From NCBI RefSeq assembly GCF_024502345.1, contig NZ_JALDNN010000001.1: 64,000 bases of DNA, one strand, 5' to 3'. The notes below the pieces were generated by a model. The model made no database searches. It was not told the origin of the DNA and saw nothing but the letters and a program-made list of their open reading frames with translations. The DNA comes from Escherichia coli (GTDB lineage Bacteria > Pseudomonadota > Gammaproteobacteria > Enterobacterales > Enterobacteriaceae). Shown piece by piece: positions 11,195-55,546 of this stretch (its first letter is position 1; each line of letters opens with the position of its first letter). The position numbers and the translations under genes were made by a program.

Positions 11195-11340
11195 GCGGGA
11201 CGCTGAAACGGGAAAGCCCCTCCCGAGGAAGGGGCCATAAATAAGGAAAGGGTCATGATGAAGATACTCATCATCGTGGTGCTCTTAGTGATTAGCTACC
11301 CAGCATACTAAGACTACCAGGGCGGGGGAAACCCCGCTCT
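11195..11340 (-). ncRNA. Sib-type antisense antitoxin RNA, copy 1 (ends approximate)
   Basis: Inferred from Sib/Ibs organisation (Sib is fully antisense to ibs); a hairpin followed by a T-rich tract on the minus strand lies near 11200-11245. Ends not determinable from sequence alone. Confidence 0.4.
11255..11311 (+). CDS. Ibs-family hydrophobic toxin peptide, 18 aa (MMKILIIVVLLVISYPAY)
   Basis: Small ORF with RBS ggaaagggtc 5 nt upstream; Ibs signature MMK + hydrophobic core + PAY end. Confidence 0.75.
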   Translation: MMKILIIVVLLVISYPAY

Positions 11341-11522
11341 ACCCTCACTCCTGAAAGTATGCCTTCACGTTCAGAATGTCAATCCGCAGGCTTTGCAGTC
11401 TGCGATCCTGCCAGCAAATATTCTTTGCGAGACGTTACGCAATAATCACAGAGGAAACTATTTTGTTCACGCGTTAGCGATAGACTGAATTCAGGGCGAA
11501 AGGAGGTAAGCCGACGATTTCA

Positions 11523-11668
11523 GCGGGACGCTGAAACGGGAAAGCCCCTCCCGAGGAAGGGGCCTTAAATAAGGAAAGGGTCATGATGAAGTGGATCATC
11601 ATCGTGGTGCTCTTAGTCATAAGCTTCCCGGCTTACTAAGACTACCAGGGCGGGGGAAACCCCGCTCT
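11523..11668 (-). ncRNA. Sib-type antisense antitoxin RNA, copy 2 (ends approximate)
   Basis: Same reasoning as copy 1, shifted by one repeat unit. Confidence 0.4.
11583..11639 (+). CDS. Ibs-family hydrophobic toxin peptide, 18 aa (MMKWIIIVVLLVISFPAY)
   Basis: Second repeat unit, same RBS context; Trp at position 4. Confidence 0.75.
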   Translation: MMKWIIIVVLLVISFPAY

Positions 11669-11850
11669 ACCCTCACTCCTGAAAGTATGCCTTCACGATA
11701 AGATTGTCAATCTGCAGGCTTTGCAGTCTGCGATCCTGCCAGCAAATATTCTTTGCGAGACGTTACGCAATAATCACACTGGAAACTATTTTATCCGCAA
11801 GTCAGCGATAGACTGCATGCATGGCGAAAGGAGGTAAGCCGACGATTTCA

Positions 11851-11996
11851 GCGGGATGCTGAAACGGGAAAGCCCCTCCCGAGGAAGGGGCCTTAAATAA
11901 GAAAAGGGTTATGATGAAGCACGTCATCATACTGGTGATACTCTTAGTGATTAGCTTCCAGGCTTACTAAGAACACCAGGGGGAGGGGAAACCTCT
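11851..11996 (-). ncRNA. Sib-type antisense antitoxin RNA, copy 3 (ends approximate)
   Basis: Same reasoning as copy 1. Confidence 0.4.
11911..11970 (+). CDS. Ibs-family hydrophobic toxin peptide, 19 aa (MMKHVIILVILLVISFQAY)
   Basis: Third repeat unit; closest to the K-12 IbsA sequence as I recall it. Confidence 0.75.
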   Translation: MMKHVIILVILLVISFQAY

Positions 11997-12189
11997 CCCT
12001 AACCCTCACTCCTGAAATTATGTCACTCCGCCCTTAGTGTCAATCGACGGCTCTCCGTTCTTGCGAGGCGAATAGCAAAATTTTCTGCGCCGCCGGGACT
12101 AATTCTGAAAGTTTCTTCGTTTGCTCTTATTTCATTATTGCAGTCGGTATGATACCGGACCTCAATAATTCTCTAAGAAAGGATTTCTT

Positions 12190-24840: not shown

Positions 24841-24885
24841 CCTGTAGGCCTGATAAGACGCGTAAAGCGTCGCATCAGGCGTTCG
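24841..24885. repeat. REP element downstream of asmA
   Basis: gtaggcctgataagacgcgtaaagcgtcgcatcaggcg. Confidence 0.75.
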
Positions 24886-27139: not shown

Positions 27140-27180
27140 TCAGTGTATTGGTAGCTAAAAAGCCAGGGGCGGTAGCGTGT
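27140..27180 (+). promoter_or_regulatory. JUMPstart element with ops site (GGCGGTAGCGTG at 27168..27179) in the wza leader
   Basis: ggtagctaaaaagccaggggcggtagcgtg matches the JUMPstart/ops (RfaH recruitment) consensus; lies about 180 bp upstream of wza. Confidence 0.85.
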
Positions 27181-31134: not shown

Positions 31135-31170
31135 CGTAGGCCGGATAAGGCGCTCACGCCGCATCCGGCA
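31135..31170. repeat. REP element between wzc and wcaA
   Basis: gtaggccggataaggcgctcacgccgcatccggca. Confidence 0.75.
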
Positions 31171-41520: not shown

Positions 41521-41640
<120 letters not shown>

Positions 41641-41709
41641 TAAATAACGACAAAAACAAAATTGGCCGTTTCGGTCAGGGCCAACTATTGCCTGAAAAAG
41701 GGTAACGAC

Positions 41710-43080
41710 ATGAAAAAATTAACCTGCTTTAAAGCCTATGATATTCGCGGGAAATTAGGCGATGAACTGAATGAAGATATCGCCTGGCGCATTGGTCGCG
41801 CCTATGGCGAATTTCTCAAACCGAAAACCATTGTGTTAGGCGGTGATGTCCGTCTCACCAGCGAAACCTTAAAACTGGCGCTGGCAAAAGGTTTACAGGA
41901 TGCGGGCGTTGACGTGCTGGATATCGGTATGTCCGGCACCGAAGAGATCTATTTCGCCACGTTCCATCTCGGCGTGGATGGCGGCATTGAAGTCACCGCC
42001 AGCCATAATCCGGTGGATTATAACGGCATGAAGCTGGTGCGCGAAGGGGCTCGCCCGATCAGCGGTGATACCGGACTGCGCGACGTCCAGCGTCTGGCTG
42101 AAGCCAACGACTTTCCTCCCGTCGATGAAACCAAACGCGGTCGCTATCAGCAAATCAACCTGCGTGACGCTTACGTTGATCACCTGTTCGGTTATATCAA
42201 TGTCAAAAACCTCACGCCGCTCAAGCTGGTGATTAACTCCGGGAACGGCGCAGCGGGTCCGGTGGTGGACGCCATTGAAGCCCGCTTTAAAGCACTCGGC
42301 GCGCCCGTGGAATTAATCAAAGTGCACAACACGCCCGACGGGAATTTCCCCAACGGTATTCCTAACCCGCTACTGCCGGAATGTCGCGACGGCACCCGCA
42401 ATGCGGTCATCAAACACGGCGCAGATATGGGCATTGCCTTTGATGGCGATTTTGACCGCTGTTTCCTGTTTGACGAAAAAGGGCAGTTTATTGAGGGCTA
42501 TTACATTGTCGGCCTGCTGGCAGAAGCATTCCTCGAAAAAAATCCCGGCGCGAAGATCATCCACGATCCACGTCTCTCCTGGAACACCGTTGATGTGGTG
42601 ACGGCCGCGGGCGGCACGCCGGTGATGTCGAAAACCGGACACGCCTTTATTAAAGAACGTATGCGCAAGGAAGACGCCATCTACGGTGGCGAAATGAGCG
42701 CTCACCATTACTTCCGCGATTTCGCTTACTGCGACAGCGGCATGATCCCATGGCTGCTGGTCGCCGAACTGGTGTGCCTGAAAGGAAAAACGCTGGGCGA
42801 ACTGGTGCGCGACCGGATGGCAGCGTTTCCGGCAAGCGGTGAGATCAACAGCAAACTGGCGCAACCCGTTGAGGCGATTAACCGCGTCGAACAGCATTTT
42901 AGCCGCGAGGCGCTGGCGGTGGATCGTACCGATGGCATCAGCATGACCTTTGCCAACTGGCGCTTTAATCTGCGCTCCTCCAACACCGAACCGGTGGTGC
43001 GGTTGAATGTGGAATCGCGCGGTGATGTGCCGCTGATGGAAGCGCGAACGCGAACTCTGCTGACGTTGCTGAACGAGTAA
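41710..43080 (+). CDS. cpsG: Phosphomannomutase (ManB)
   Basis: Start set at [17 protein letters not shown] (456 aa); the track ORF is extended 16 codons upstream. Confidence 0.95.
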
Positions 43081-44611: not shown

Positions 44612-46090
44612 ATGAGCTTACGTGAAAAGACCATCAGCGGCGCGAAGTGGTCGGCGATTGCCACGGTGATCATCATCGGCCTCGGGCTGGTGCAGATGAC
44701 CGTGCTGGCGCGGATTATCGACAACCACCAGTTCGGCCTGCTTACCGTGTCGCTGGTGATTATCGCGCTGGCAGATACGCTTTCTGACTTCGGTATCGCT
44801 AACTCGATTATTCAGCGAAAAGAAATCAGTCACCTTGAACTCACCACGTTGTACTGGCTGAACGTCGGGCTGGGGCTTGTGGTGTGCGTGGCGGTGTTTT
44901 TGTTGAGTGATCTCATTGGTGACGTGCTGAATAACCCGGACCTGGCACCGTTGATTAAAACATTGTCGCTGGCGTTTGTGGTGATCCCCCACGGGCAACA
45001 GTTCCGCGCGTTGATGCAGAAGGAGCTCGAGTTCAACAAAATCGGCATGATCGAAACCAGCGCGGTGCTGGCGGGCTTTACTTTTACGGTGGTTAGCGCC
45101 CATTTCTGGCCGCTGGCGATGACCGCGATCCTCGGTTATCTGGTCAATAGTGCGGTAAGAACGCTGCTGTTTGGCTACTTTGGCCGCAAAATTTATCGCC
45201 CCGGTCTGCACTTCTCGCTGGCGTCGGTGGCACCGAACTTACGCTTTGGTGCCTGGCTGACGGCGGACAGCATCATCAACTATCTCAACACCAACCTTTC
45301 AACGCTGGTGCTGGCGCGTATTCTCGGCGCGGGCGTGGCCGGGGGATACAACCTGGCGTACAACGTGGCCGTTGTGCCGCCGATGAAGCTGAACCCGATC
45401 ATCACCCGCGTGTTGTTTCCGGCATTCGCCAAAATTCAGGACGACACCGAAAAGCTGCGCGTCAACTTCTACAAGCTGCTGTCGGTGGTGGGGATTATTA
45501 ACTTTCCAGCGCTGCTGGGGCTGATGGTGGTGTCGAATAACTTCGTACCGCTGGTCTTTGGTGAGAAGTGGAACAGCATTATTCCGGTGCTGCAATTGCT
45601 GTGTATTGTGGGTCTGCTGCGCTCCGTAGGTAACCCGATTGGCTCGCTGCTGATGGCGAAAGCGCGGGTCGATATCAGCTTTAAATTCAACGTATTCAAA
45701 ACATTTCTGTTTATTCCGGCGATTGTTATAGGTGGGCAGATGGCGGGCGCAATCGGCGTCACGCTTGGTTTCCTGCTGGTGCAGATTATCAACACCATTC
45801 TGAGTTACTTCGTGATGATTAAACCGGTTCTTGGTTCCAGTTATCGCCAGTACATCCTGAGTTTATGGCTGCCGTTTTATCTCTCGCTGCCGACGCTGGG
45901 GGTCAGTTATGCGCTGGGCATTGTACTGAAAGGGCAACTGGCGCTGGGGATGCTGCTGGCGGTGCAAATAGCCGCGGGCGTGCTGGCGTTTGTGGTGATG
46001 ATTGTGCTGTCGCGCCATCCGCTGATGGTGGAAGTGAAGCGCCAGTTTTGTCGCAGCGAAAAAATGAAAATGCTTTTACGGGCGGGGTGA
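44612..46090 (+). CDS. wzxC: Colanic acid repeat-unit flippase WzxC
   Basis: 492-aa multi-TM ORF. Confidence 0.93.
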   Translation: MSLREKTISGAKWSAIATVIIIGLGLVQMTVLARIIDNHQFGLLTVSLVIIALADTLSDFGIANSIIQRKEISHLELTTLYWLNVGLGLVVCVAVFLLSDLIGDVLNNPDLAPLIKTLSLAFVVIPHGQQFRALMQKELEFNKIGMIETSAVLAGFTFTVVSAHFWPLAMTAILGYLVNSAVRTLLFGYFGRKIYRPGLHFSLASVAPNLRFGAWLTADSIINYLNTNLSTLVLARILGAGVAGGYNLAYNVAVVPPMKLNPIITRVLFPAFAKIQDDTEKLRVNFYKLLSVVGIINFPALLGLMVVSNNFVPLVFGEKWNSIIPVLQLLCIVGLLRSVGNPIGSLLMAKARVDISFKFNVFKTFLFIPAIVIGGQMAGAIGVTLGFLLVQIINTILSYFVMIKPVLGSSYRQYILSLWLPFYLSLPTLGVSYALGIVLKGQLALGMLLAVQIAAGVLAFVVMIVLSRHPLMVEVKRQFCRSEKMKMLLRAG

Positions 46091-46094
46091 GTTG

Positions 46095-46440
46095 TTGTTT
46101 TCGGTTTCGGCAATGGTTGCCGGATGCGGCGTAAAACGCCTTATCCATCCTACGGTTCTGTGCTCGGGACCTGTAGGCCTGATAAGACGCGTCAGCGTCG
46201 CATCAGGCACTGAATGCCGGATGCGGCGTGAACGCCTTATCCGGCCTACGGTTCTGTGCTCGGGTCTTGTAGGCCTGATAAGACGCGCCAGCGTCGCATC
46301 AGGCACTGAATGCCGGATGCGGCGTGAACGCCTTATCCATCCTACGGTTCTGTGCTTGGATCTTGTAGGCCTGATAAGACGCGCCAGCGTCGCATCAGGC
46401 AAAAAACGGCAACGAACACAACAAACACAGCCTCACCTGG
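46095..46440. repeat. REP array (BIME cluster) between wzxC and wcaK
   Basis: Six alternating units of gccggatgcggcgtgaacgccttatcc...cctacg and gtaggcctgataagacgcg(c/t)cagcgtcgcatcaggc. Confidence 0.85.
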
Positions 46441-46461
46441 CATCAAATTTATGAGGAAAAA

Positions 46462-47742
46462 ATGAAATTACTTATTCTGGGCAACCACACTTGCGGCAAC
46501 CGCGGCGACAGTGCCATCTTGCGCGGCTTACTTGATGCCATCAACATCCTCAATCCACATGCCGAAGTGGACGTGATGAGCCGCTATCCGGTCAGTTCTT
46601 CCTGGCTGCTCAACCGCCCGGTAATGGGCGATCCGCTGTTCCTGCAAATGAAACAACATAACAGCGCGGCGGGCGTTGTCGGGCGCGTTAAAAAAGTCCT
46701 CCGTCGCCGCTATCAGCACCAGGTATTGCTCTCACGCGTCACCGACACTGGCAAGCTGCGTAATATCGCCATCGCCCAGGGATTCACCGACTTCGTGCGC
46801 CTGATGTCAGGTTACGACGCCATTATTCAGGTCGGCGGATCGTTTTTTGTCGATCTCTATGGCGTGCCGCAGTTTGAACATGCACTTTGCACGTTTATGG
46901 CGAAAAAGCCGCTGTTTATGATTGGTCACAGCGTCGGTCCCTTCCAGGATGAGCAATTTAACCAACTGGCGAACTACGTTTTTGGTCACTGTGACGCGCT
47001 GATCCTACGCGAATCGGTCAGCCTTGATTTGATGAAACGCAGCAATATCACTACCGCAAAAGTGGAACATGGCGTCGATACCGCGTGGCTGGTCGATCAC
47101 CACACCGAAGATTTCACCGCCAGCTATGCCGTTCAACACTGGCTGGACGTTGCCGCACAACAGAAAACGGTGGCAATTACCCTGCGCGAACTGGCACCGT
47201 TCGACAAACGTCTCGGCACCACTCAACAAGCGTATGAAAAAGCCTTTGCCGGGGTGGTCAATCGCATTCTCGACGAAGGGTATCAGGTGATTGCGCTATC
47301 CACCTGTACGGGCATCGACAGCTATAACAAAGACGACCGCATGGTGGCGCTTAATCTGCGCCAGCACATCAGCGATCCTGCCCGTTACCACGTAGTGATG
47401 GATGAACTCAACGATCTGGAAATGGGCAAAATTCTGGAGGCCTGTGAACTCACCGTCGGTACGCGCCTGCACTCTGCCATTATCTCGATGAATTTCTCCA
47501 CTCCGGCAATTGCCATCAACTACGAACATAAATCCGCCGGGATTATGCAGCAGCTGGGACTGCCAGAGATGGCGATTGATATCCGTCATTTACTGGACGG
47601 CAGCCTGCAAGCGATGGTTGCGGATACCTTAGGCCAGCTTCCGGCGCTGAACGCACGACTTAACGAAGCTGTCAGTCGTGAGCGTCAGACGGGAATGCAG
47701 ATGGTGCAATCTGTGCTTGAGCGCATCGGGGAGGTGAAATGA
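46462..47742 (+). CDS. wcaK: Colanic acid pyruvyltransferase WcaK
   Basis: 426-aa ORF. Confidence 0.92.
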   Translation: MKLLILGNHTCGNRGDSAILRGLLDAINILNPHAEVDVMSRYPVSSSWLLNRPVMGDPLFLQMKQHNSAAGVVGRVKKVLRRRYQHQVLLSRVTDTGKLRNIAIAQGFTDFVRLMSGYDAIIQVGGSFFVDLYGVPQFEHALCTFMAKKPLFMIGHSVGPFQDEQFNQLANYVFGHCDALILRESVSLDLMKRSNITTAKVEHGVDTAWLVDHHTEDFTASYAVQHWLDVAAQQKTVAITLRELAPFDKRLGTTQQAYEKAFAGVVNRILDEGYQVIALSTCTGIDSYNKDDRMVALNLRQHISDPARYHVVMDELNDLEMGKILEACELTVGTRLHSAIISMNFSTPAIAINYEHKSAGIMQQLGLPEMAIDIRHLLDGSLQAMVADTLGQLPALNARLNEAVSRERQTGMQMVQSVLERIGEVK

Positions 47743-52653: not shown

Positions 52654-52886
52654 TGAAAATCTGACCGAATGTAACGGTTGATAAGACAAATTATAACGGC
52701 AGTGAAGATTCCTGTGGGGAGTAATTTGTTGCGATTACCACTGTCGTTATTCAACTATAAGCATAAAAAAGTTAAATATAATTTGGGGATTTTAAGTATA
52801 TGGAAACGCCTTTGTCTACTGAATAAGTAAAGTATTAACTGTAAGAAAAGCGTGAATGGTGTTCCCTACATAATTTAAAGATATTC

Positions 52887-52925
52887 AGTCTACTGGTAGC
52901 TGTTAAGCCAGGGGCGGTAGCGTGG
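52887..52925 (+). promoter_or_regulatory. JUMPstart element with ops site (GGCGGTAGCGTG at 52913..52924) upstream of the O-antigen cluster
   Basis: cagtctactggtagctgttaagccaggggcggtagcgtg matches the 39-bp JUMPstart consensus closely. Confidence 0.9.
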
Positions 52926-54361: not shown

Positions 54362-55546
54362 GTGATCATGGTTAATGCTAAAAATTTTGTATTAATTATT
54401 TTTGATGTAATATGTCTTTTTTTTAATGTTTTTATTTATGTCCCACGTCTAATTATTGGTGTTTTAACAGTAGATAAAACATTGATTATTACATTTCCCT
54501 TGATGTTATCAGTGTTGGCATATAATTTTATTCCACCAGAAACATATGATCTTTACAGACATTATGAAAACTATCAAAATTTTTTGAATAATAATGAAGT
54601 AAGTTTTATCAGGGATTTTTTTCTTTATTTTTTATTTACCGTAGGGAGGTTTTTTGATTTAAATAATGGATTTATAGCATTTGTATCTTGTTATATCCTC
54701 TATTTTTATTGGTTAAAAATATTATACATTAACTTTGATTATAAAGCCAAGAAGAAAAATTTCCCGTTATACTTTCTTATATTTTTTATTACTCCACCTC
54801 TTGTTATATATACAGGCGTTCGATTTTCCACAGGGCTTATATTAACACTGTATGGGATTGTAAACTGGATTCAATTACGGAATGTAAAACTTGGTATAGT
54901 ATATATTATTTGCGGGTTAACAGCCCATTTTTCAATGGCATTGATTGCTTTAATATTTATTTTCACATCATATTTCAATAATATCTTTTCAAATAAATAT
55001 TTAAGGGTTGGGTTCGTATTTTCTGCATTACTTGTAATCTCATTTAATGAACAGTTAGTAAGGTTTTTGACAACAGTAATTGAGTTCATTAATCAGTTAT
55101 TTGATTGGAACTTTATTAGTATCGATACATATATTACTGGTAAATGGGGGCTGGAGAGGGCGCAGGAATTGAATTCAACCGGACAATTAGTATTAGGTAT
55201 ACGTAATTATGGTATGCTCTTTCTAATATTGCTATTTTGCCCACTAATATCTTTTAATAAAAATAAATATACGAACTTTTATTATGTAATGTGTGCTGTT
55301 ACAATATTAGTTTTCCCTTTTACAGCAGTATTTGATAGATATGGAACATTTTTAATTTTTTTTATTGTATACTATCTTAGTACTCTTCAGAAAAAAACTA
55401 ACATTGAAATAATATATTTTTTAACGTTGATTGTATATTTGATTTTCTTTAGAGCAATAGACATCAAAGATAATATTTCCGTATACACTGAAAGCTATAG
55501 TAATATATTGAATCTTTCTTTAATTAAAGTACTGTTAGGAATATAA
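54362..55546 (+). CDS. wzy: O-antigen polymerase Wzy (putative)
   Basis: 394-aa highly hydrophobic multi-TM ORF next to wzx; start may be ATG at 54368. Confidence 0.65.
   Translation: MIMVNAKNFVLIIFDVICLFFNVFIYVPRLIIGVLTVDKTLIITFPLMLSVLAYNFIPPETYDLYRHYENYQNFLNNNEVSFIRDFFLYFLFTVGRFFDLNNGFIAFVSCYILYFYWLKILYINFDYKAKKKNFPLYFLIFFITPPLVIYTGVRFSTGLILTLYGIVNWIQLRNVKLGIVYIICGLTAHFSMALIALIFIFTSYFNNIFSNKYLRVGFVFSALLVISFNEQLVRFLTTVIEFINQLFDWNFISIDTYITGKWGLERAQELNSTGQLVLGIRNYGMLFLILLFCPLISFNKNKYTNFYYVMCAVTILVFPFTAVFDRYGTFLIFFIVYYLSTLQKKTNIEIIYFLTLIVYLIFFRAIDIKDNISVYTESYSNILNLSLIKVLLGI

Follow-up and report, generated by a model that had tools for sequence, protein, structure and literature searches.

A BIME-2 array of variable copy number between wzxC and wcaK in the colanic acid operon of Escherichia coli

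The window (the whole 64,000-nucleotide stretch of E. coli DNA that was analysed) contains an array of REP palindromes in the spacer between wzxC and wcaK, inside the colanic acid operon. We asked what kind of element this is, how it varies among strains, and whether it acts on the genes on either side of it. Neither the element nor its locus nor its polymorphism is new: the array is a textbook case of BIME-2, and its position has been catalogued before. Our preferred reading, to which we give a probability of roughly 0.8, is that it is the three-unit allele of the REP144 BIME-2 cluster, and that it is derived, varies by whole units and has a small effect on the operon.

Structure and class of the array

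The 371-bp wzxC-wcaK spacer contains one tandem array, at 46118-46401 (284 bp), for which Tandem Repeats Finder gave a period of 96, 2.9 copies and 94% matches; a repeat search gave three 96-nt direct copies with the expected inverted arms. By REP consensus matching, the array consists of units of 96-97 bp, each a Y-type REP followed by an inverted Z2-type REP, for a total of six REPs. The first-pass annotation had reported six REPs in alternating orientation within the colanic acid operon at 46095-46440; the repeats and their arrangement were confirmed by Tandem Repeats Finder and consensus matching, and the array does lie between those positions, but about 23 nt at the left and about 39 nt at the right of that interval are non-repeat flank. 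The names wzxC and wcaK were taken from the annotation of 21 RefSeq genomes with 100% identity over 1.2 kb. The features of the junction are as follows.

44612-46090, plus strand: wzxC, colanic acid repeat-unit flippase, the upstream gene (open reading frame list and RefSeq annotation of identical genomes)
46088-46090: TGA stop codon of wzxC
46091-46117, plus strand: left non-repeat flank, 27 nt, G/T-rich
46118-46153, plus strand: REP 1, Y-type, variant with a GTAAAAC loop and a CCATCC tail
46154-46172, plus strand: tail-to-tail linker GGTTCTGTGCTCGGGACCT, 19 nt, which starts GGTTCTGTGCTCGG
46173-46209, minus strand: REP 2, Z2-type, inverted (consensus matching)
46210-46214: head-to-head linker CTGAA, 5 nt, preceding REP 3
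46215-46249, plus strand: REP 3, Y-type, exact consensus
46250-46268 and 46346-46364, plus strand: further copies of the 19-nt tail-to-tail linker
46269-46305, minus strand: REP 4, Z2-type, inverted, exact consensus
46311-46345, plus strand: REP 5, Y-type, CCATCC variant (consensus matching)
46365-46401, minus strand: REP 6, Z2-type, inverted (consensus matching)
46402-46461, plus strand: right non-repeat flank, 60 nt, A/C-rich (29 A, 15 C, 9 G, 7 T)
46462-47742, plus strand: wcaK, pyruvyl transferase, the first gene 3' of the array (open reading frame list and RefSeq annotation)

The variant sequence of REP 1 places two mismatches at the base of its stem. The right flank is predicted to be unstructured and carries the wcaK ribosome-binding site, GAGG, at 46453-46456. 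The array is far beyond chance, since five mononucleotide shuffles of the window contained no REP match and the fold predicted for the 46085-46470 transcript has an energy of -183 kcal/mol (z = -8.7 relative to dinucleotide shuffles). Single REPs are predicted to form RNA hairpins of about -21 kcal/mol (-21.3 for REP 3 and -21.9 for REP 4), and one whole unit can fold at -52.7 kcal/mol. A looser half-site scan found only four other REPs within the 64-kb window: a pair at 17899-17982, one at about 24844-24880 and one at 31136-31169.

The architecture of the array is that of a BIME-2 element, as judged from its Y and Z2 REPs, tandem copies, short linkers and strain-variable copy number. In the Bachellier/Gilson classification, BIME-2 combines y and z2 motifs in tandem copies with a short linker and a copy number that differs among strains, and BIME-1 is a single Y/Z1 pair whose long L linker carries an IHF site (PMC3333891). 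Here the REPs alternate in the inverted order Y+, Z2-, Y+, Z2-, Y+, Z2-, the period is 96 with linkers of 19 nt and 5 nt, and copy number ranges from 0 to 6 units among the 118 genomes described below. The array resembles BIME-1, or RIB-RIP, elements in having inverted REP pairs that include a Y unit, but its REPs are Z2 rather than Z1, its units are in tandem rather than single copy, and linkers of 5 and 19 nt stand in place of the long L linker with its IHF site. A pattern search for the IHF consensus WATCAANNNNTTR found none within 46000-46500; the window has four matches in all, of which the closest to the array is at 54475. The suggestion of the first-pass annotation that the array might bind IHF was therefore not borne out, as IHF sites belong to the L linker of BIME-1.

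The closest well-studied relative is REP325, which lies between yjdM and yjdN of K-12 and includes naRNA1-6. It too is composed of Y and Z2 motifs (PMC4550694), and it is likewise a tandem BIME-2 array, lying between two genes that are read in the same direction within one transcription unit. No other array of this kind has had its mechanism tested, which for REP325 is that of a partial Rho-dependent terminator and stabiliser of upstream mRNA. Its units are 88-89% identical to the unit of our array over 91 nt. However, REP325 is built of six 100-bp units, and its head-to-head 'l' linker is 11 nt long, compared to three 96-bp units and a 5-nt linker here, the two arrays are in opposite orientation relative to transcription, and the operon that hosts the present array carries ops and RfaH, unlike that of REP325.

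This relationship bears on whether the array might encode small RNAs of the naRNA4 kind, which would bind HU and compact the nucleoid. Two segments scored above the gathering threshold of the Rfam naRNA4 family (RF02564), at 46176-46246 (79.7 bits) and 46272-46342 (71.6 bits). Because the array is inverted with respect to transcription in comparison with REP325, however, both matches are on the minus strand, antisense to the operon, and the operon strand scored only 55.4 and 42.2, below the gathering score of 59.5. The RF02564 model itself describes one Y-linker-Z2 unit of REP325, so that any BIME-2 element matches it; no sigma-70-like promoter was found on either strand of 45600-46900; and Harris 2026 did not reproduce the role of REP325/naRNA4 in compacting the nucleoid. 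On the grounds of strand, orientation and this unreproduced role we rejected a naRNA4 gene as very improbable, and we read the matches as BIME-2 units.

Protein coding was even harder to credit. Two open reading frames span the array in the window allele, at 46092-46454 (plus strand, 120 aa) and 46076-46402 (minus strand, 108 aa), and 96, the unit length, is divisible by three. However, both are made up of REP palindromes, none of the identical genomes has a RefSeq CDS annotated there, and many strains, like every outgroup examined, lack the whole segment or have other sequence in its place; we regard a coding function as next to impossible and rejected it.

Copy number, recombination and origin

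The locus is present in K-12 MG1655 with a 275-bp spacer and two units (four REPs), and it is named REP144 (2118467-2118652, wzxC-wcaK) in the supplement of Harris 2026. Flanks, Y/Z2 units and linkers are the same in both alleles; the window allele differs in having three units and a 371-bp spacer, plus a few point differences within REPs. The first-pass annotation had proposed that REP copy number be compared across E. coli genomes. We sampled spacers with flank-only queries against complete RefSeq E. coli, in two evenly spaced samples of 59 genomes each, and found that copy number was not invariant: the 118 sampled genomes formed a ladder of 71/179/275/371/467/564/661 bp, with 96-bp steps that correspond to 0 to 6 units. 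The spacer lengths were distributed as follows.

71-72 bp: 11 genomes (about 9%), no REP
145 bp: 4 genomes, one Y and a truncated Z2
161 bp: 5 genomes, unrelated sequence
170 bp: 1 genome
178-179 bp: 18 genomes, one unit
275-284 bp: 37 genomes, two units, including about ten K-12 derivatives
359-372 bp: 8 genomes, three units, window-like
466-468 bp: 12 genomes, four units
563-566 bp: 16 genomes, five units
660-663 bp: 6 genomes, six units, including Nissle 1917

Structures were read by sequence in 11 alleles, with one representative per length class except for the single 170-bp case. The three-unit allele of the window is thus in the minority, at about 7% of the sampled genomes. The odd spacer sizes resulted from small deletions, some of which lie between short repeats, or from a 9-bp duplication. 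In Nissle 1917, units 3 and 4 are near-duplicates of units 5 and 6, which indicates a 193-bp higher-order duplication. CFT073 likewise carries six units, and O157:H7 one. This expansion and contraction by whole units is consistent with unequal recombination or slippage between direct repeats.

Variation in REP number at wcaK-wzxC had been noted before among O157 strains, with a suggested link to recombination (Iguchi 2011, PMC3158064). That comparison covered six O157 strains; ours extends to 0-6 units and a non-REP allele over 118 complete genomes, plus outgroups. The RepRanger supplements had no entry for wzxC/wcaK. Three units were present in all 33 genomes at least 99.7% identical to the window, and a 275-bp, two-unit spacer was present in 40 of 40 genomes with a flank score of 1447 bits, yet flank haplotypes 99.3-99.5% identical to one another carried spacers of 71, 275, 563 or 659 bp. 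Because copy number is uniform within clones but differs among close flank haplotypes, the array, to judge from these sequence comparisons, changes faster than neighbouring point substitutions accrue, yet is no rapid switch.

Several other differences at and near this junction were seen among the E. coli genomes. The 161-bp spacer makes up about 4% of the sample, and NCTC86 falls in the same length class. Its representative (L004, 5401-5561, UID2404240040) is without REP. In place of the array it contains an unrelated sequence that includes the G+C-rich palindrome CCCTCTCCCCAGGGGGCGAGGGG and a ribosome-binding site that also differs, and that is similar to elements at the same junction in Lelliottia, Pluralibacter and Pseudenterobacter. 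About 763 of the 5,426 complete E. coli genomes (14%) matched neither wcaK nor the wzxC/wcaK flanks by megablast, so that a sizeable minority of E. coli appears to lack, or to have replaced, the distal colanic acid genes. Insertion sequences were present among the distal colanic acid genes in 2 of the 11 strains (L007, 8268-9904; L009, 8526-9449); wcaM is truncated by IS1A in strain G6/7, and IS903B lies between wcaL and wcaM in strain Z1324SEC0014.

The array has also served as a substrate for recombination, as the first-pass annotation had supposed such arrays might. In strain TUM11356, alkA is joined directly to wcaK: the sequence matches window positions 14236-17982, which hold alkA and its own Y/Z2 pair, and then 46172-46470. 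The partner in this deletion was the pair found 3' of alkA in the half-site scan.

17899-17982, plus strand: Y/Z2 REP pair 3' of alkA, diverged, in the same orientation as the array

The crossover (L092, 3656-4001) lies inside a 37-nt Z2 REP (window 46173-46209) that is common to the alkA BIME and the array. The resulting 28-kb deletion, between directly oriented REPs, removed everything from 3' of alkA through wzxC, so that dispersed REPs can delete the first 17 colanic acid genes (wza-wzxC) and the alkA-wza interval by ectopic recombination. The alkA-wcaK junction was unique to this strain, occurring in one of 5,426 genomes.

These observations raise the question of whether recombination takes place preferentially at the array, which would then shape the exchange of the O-antigen/colanic acid neighbourhood. 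Iguchi 2011 found that wcaK-wzxC REP indels coincide with a change in similarity between two O157 strains, and the TUM11356 deletion does end within the array. As a crude, low-power test of linkage, we correlated the pairwise distances of adjacent 400-1400-bp blocks among 11 diverse alleles. Blocks flanking the array gave r = 0.44, 0.21 and 0.22 (400, 700 and 1400 bp, respectively), compared to -0.12 to 0.56 for adjacent blocks within genes; the whole region is mosaic, and among these 11 alleles no extra breakdown of linkage was seen at the array relative to the rest of it. Given this result, and a REP-REP junction in only one of the 5,426 genomes, we consider a preferred junction to be quite unlikely. 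The preferred reading of a unit-wise variable cluster would have the array recombine with other REPs only occasionally.

We examined the origin of the array by scanning one genome per species, which gave 80 Enterobacteriaceae loci encoding WcaK. In most genera (Enterobacter, Leclercia, Kosakonia, Lelliottia and others) the gap between wzxC and wcaK is no more than 14-30 bp (TTTTAAGAGGTCATT is one example). Several lineages have independently acquired sequence at this junction: a species-specific REP pair in Citrobacter amalonaticus (109 bp), and G+C-rich palindromes CCCTCTCCC...GGGAGAGGG...GGGGTGAGGG in Pseudenterobacter, Pluralibacter and Lelliottia. E. whittamii has one Z2. The outgroups thus show the opposite of an array conserved with compensatory changes. 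Because of the short gap in most related genera, the array is, on this comparison of sequences, a dispensable, derived, lineage-specific insertion, at a junction into which small palindromic repeats have entered repeatedly. The REP family was presumably seeded and spread by the REP-associated transposase RayT.

The site of insertion may itself have been structured. The left and right flanks are partly complementary (46085-46105 with 46413-46437) and form the outermost stem of the minimum free energy fold, enclosing the array, and a REP-free allele (L002, 5392-5450) folds as a hairpin of -22 kcal/mol (z = -2.4) with the array position in its loop. These predicted folds suggest that the repeats entered the loop of an older hairpin. 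However, the flanks of the K-12 allele pair less well, which makes conservation of the hairpin doubtful.

Possible effect of the array on the operon

If the array acts in the operon mRNA, REP325 is the model for how it might do so. Harris 2026 showed that REP325 stabilises upstream mRNA and partly terminates transcription before the downstream gene, that termination and its dependence on Rho emerge with array length, and that, genome-wide, expression across REPs is biased upstream. By analogy, each REP hairpin in the colanic acid mRNA could block 3'-to-5' exonucleases, and the hairpins could cause partial Rho-dependent termination. The array might thus be a functional attenuator or stabiliser within the operon, lowering wcaKLM relative to wza-wzxC in a ratio set by copy number; the right flank, unstructured and with more C than G, is in keeping with this proposal.

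Published expression values for K-12, with its two units, bear on this proposal. After colicin M induction, log2 values were 4.82 for wcaJ, 4.45 for wzxC, 4.45 for wcaK, 3.63 for wcaL and 2.71 for wcaM (PMC3599342). Although induction declines from wcaK to wcaM, the gradient, in these microarray fold-changes rather than absolute abundances, is smooth and does not step at the array; from gmd onward, values fall gradually over the whole operon. Uninduced DESeq2 baseMean values were 37.5, 36.2, 90.9, 161.5 and 144.3 for wcaJ, wzxC, wcaK, wcaL and wcaM, respectively; they step up across the array, the opposite of attenuation, though the values may come from separate tables or be unstranded. A REP325-type attenuator would give higher expression upstream and a bicyclomycin-sensitive loss of transcripts across the array, and these K-12 values show no drop across REP144. 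Differential expression of the distal wcaKLM genes, for which the first-pass annotation had considered this junction a plausible point, is therefore unproven and unlikely to be strong.

The leader of the operon provides a further reason for expecting a small effect.

27141-27180, plus strand: JUMPstart with ops (GGCGGTAGCGTG at 27169-27180), leader of the colanic acid operon (Rfam RF01707, 57.3 bits)

The ops sequence in this leader is perfect. In CFT073, wza-wcaM is a transcription unit bound by RfaH in ChIP, and RfaH stays on the polymerase and counteracts Rho (PMC9765446). Polymerase loaded with RfaH at ops would later cross the array, and Rho-dependent attenuation there should be blunted. 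Moreover, portions of REP325 with 2-4 hairpins were insensitive to bicyclomycin (Harris 2026). Strong polarity at the junction should also be harmful, and counter-selected, because repeat-unit synthesis is completed by WcaK and WcaL, which carry out its final two steps (PMC12826051). RfaH on the polymerase and this counter-selection together make a small effect probable. Considering also the 14-30-bp spacer of most related genera and the 71-bp, REP-free spacer of about 9% of sampled E. coli, we find a functional attenuator or stabiliser unlikely.

The sequence after the last REP, AAAAAACGG, is not the T run that would follow a G+C-rich hairpin in an intrinsic terminator, and no intrinsic terminator-like site was found on either strand of 45600-46900. 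Our literature search found nothing specific on an internal wcaK promoter. Liang, Rudd and Deutscher reportedly found in 2015 that a REP regulates translation of the upstream gene if its hairpin lies within about 15 nt of the stop codon; here 28 nt separate the end of the wzxC stop codon (46090) from the start of the first REP stem (46119), which is more than that distance.

A role on the DNA itself was weighed as well, the first-pass annotation having listed gyrase among the possible ligands of such arrays. Gyrase cleavage sites are over-represented in BIME-2 elements, mainly in Y REPs and independently of transcription (PMC6379681), and three of the REPs in the array are Y; as a member of this class the array plausibly binds gyrase, and by this analogy it would be a likely gyrase site rather than an IHF site. 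That its main role is to act as a strong gyrase site, relieving positive supercoiling in front of the polymerases in a strongly induced 23-kb operon, nevertheless seems improbable: only a subset of BIME-2 elements was cleaved in that study, the wzxC-wcaK locus is not among the entries in two of its supplementary files, and the 0-unit alleles and the outgroups do without the array.

We therefore return to the three-unit allele of REP144 as a derived cluster of small effect. We infer that the array is mainly a self-propagating repeat tolerated by the operon. It may, by analogy with REP325, protect the upstream message from 3' exonucleases, and a modest effect on wcaKLM is possible; any attenuation of wcaKLM in K-12 appears to be small, and a regulatory role is unproven and probably small. 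By the same analogy, alleles with 8-12 REPs could attenuate more than the four REPs of K-12. Neutrality is likewise what we infer, though the wide spread in copy number could reflect selection.

Two observations made alongside this comparison concern transcription near the array in K-12. In the basal state, wcaK-M counts exceeded those of wzxC by a factor of 2.5-4.5. Rho binding at REP144 has been mapped to a single site, which is antisense (K-12 2118651-2118749, plus strand; window 46021-46119, minus strand); identified in vitro and NusG-dependent, it lies over the 3' end of wzxC and abuts the array. The higher basal wcaK-M expression and the antisense Rho site suggest either an internal promoter that has yet to be mapped or antisense transcription stopping at the array. 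Elsewhere in the cluster, the single Y REP at 31136-31169 (minus strand) is probably the wzc-wcaA REP of Iguchi 2011, which was conserved there; K-12 induction falls from 6.72 for wzc to 5.70 for wcaA across that junction. A second JUMPstart, at 52886-52924 (plus strand), is presumably the leader of the O-antigen cluster.

Uses of the allele series and other features of the window

A bolder proposal is that copy number, from 0 to 6, is a heritable, slowly mutating dial for the ratio of the late enzymes WcaK, WcaL and WcaM to the machinery encoded upstream, or for the stability of the 19-kb upstream mRNA. We think this quite unlikely. If it were true, lineages would differ in colanic acid yield, pyruvylation or Und-P load with promoter and coding sequences unchanged, and selection, not a bias in insertion, would explain why unrelated palindromic repeats have colonised the junction again and again in other genera. 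Whatever the size of the effect, a series of 0-6-unit alleles in one inducible, RfaH-controlled operon is a test bed for length-dependent attenuation or stabilisation, and the same series could show whether RfaH overrides the effects of REP arrays. The 96-bp ladder also offers a simple typing marker beside the O-antigen locus.

Some features of the window outside the array were observed in passing. In K-12, the SIB locus holds two SIB genes, sibA and sibB. Three tandem SIB RNA genes are present in the window, all on the minus strand, at 11240-11382, 11568-11710 and 11896-12043 (Rfam RF00113, 140-146 bits), and the window strain may carry an extra copy of this Sib/Ibs toxin-antitoxin system. 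An algC RNA motif at 41656-41705 (plus strand; Rfam RF02929, 78 bits) overlaps the start of the open reading frame at 41662-43080, which gene order in related loci suggests to be cpsG, and a lone REP half-site lies at 41611.
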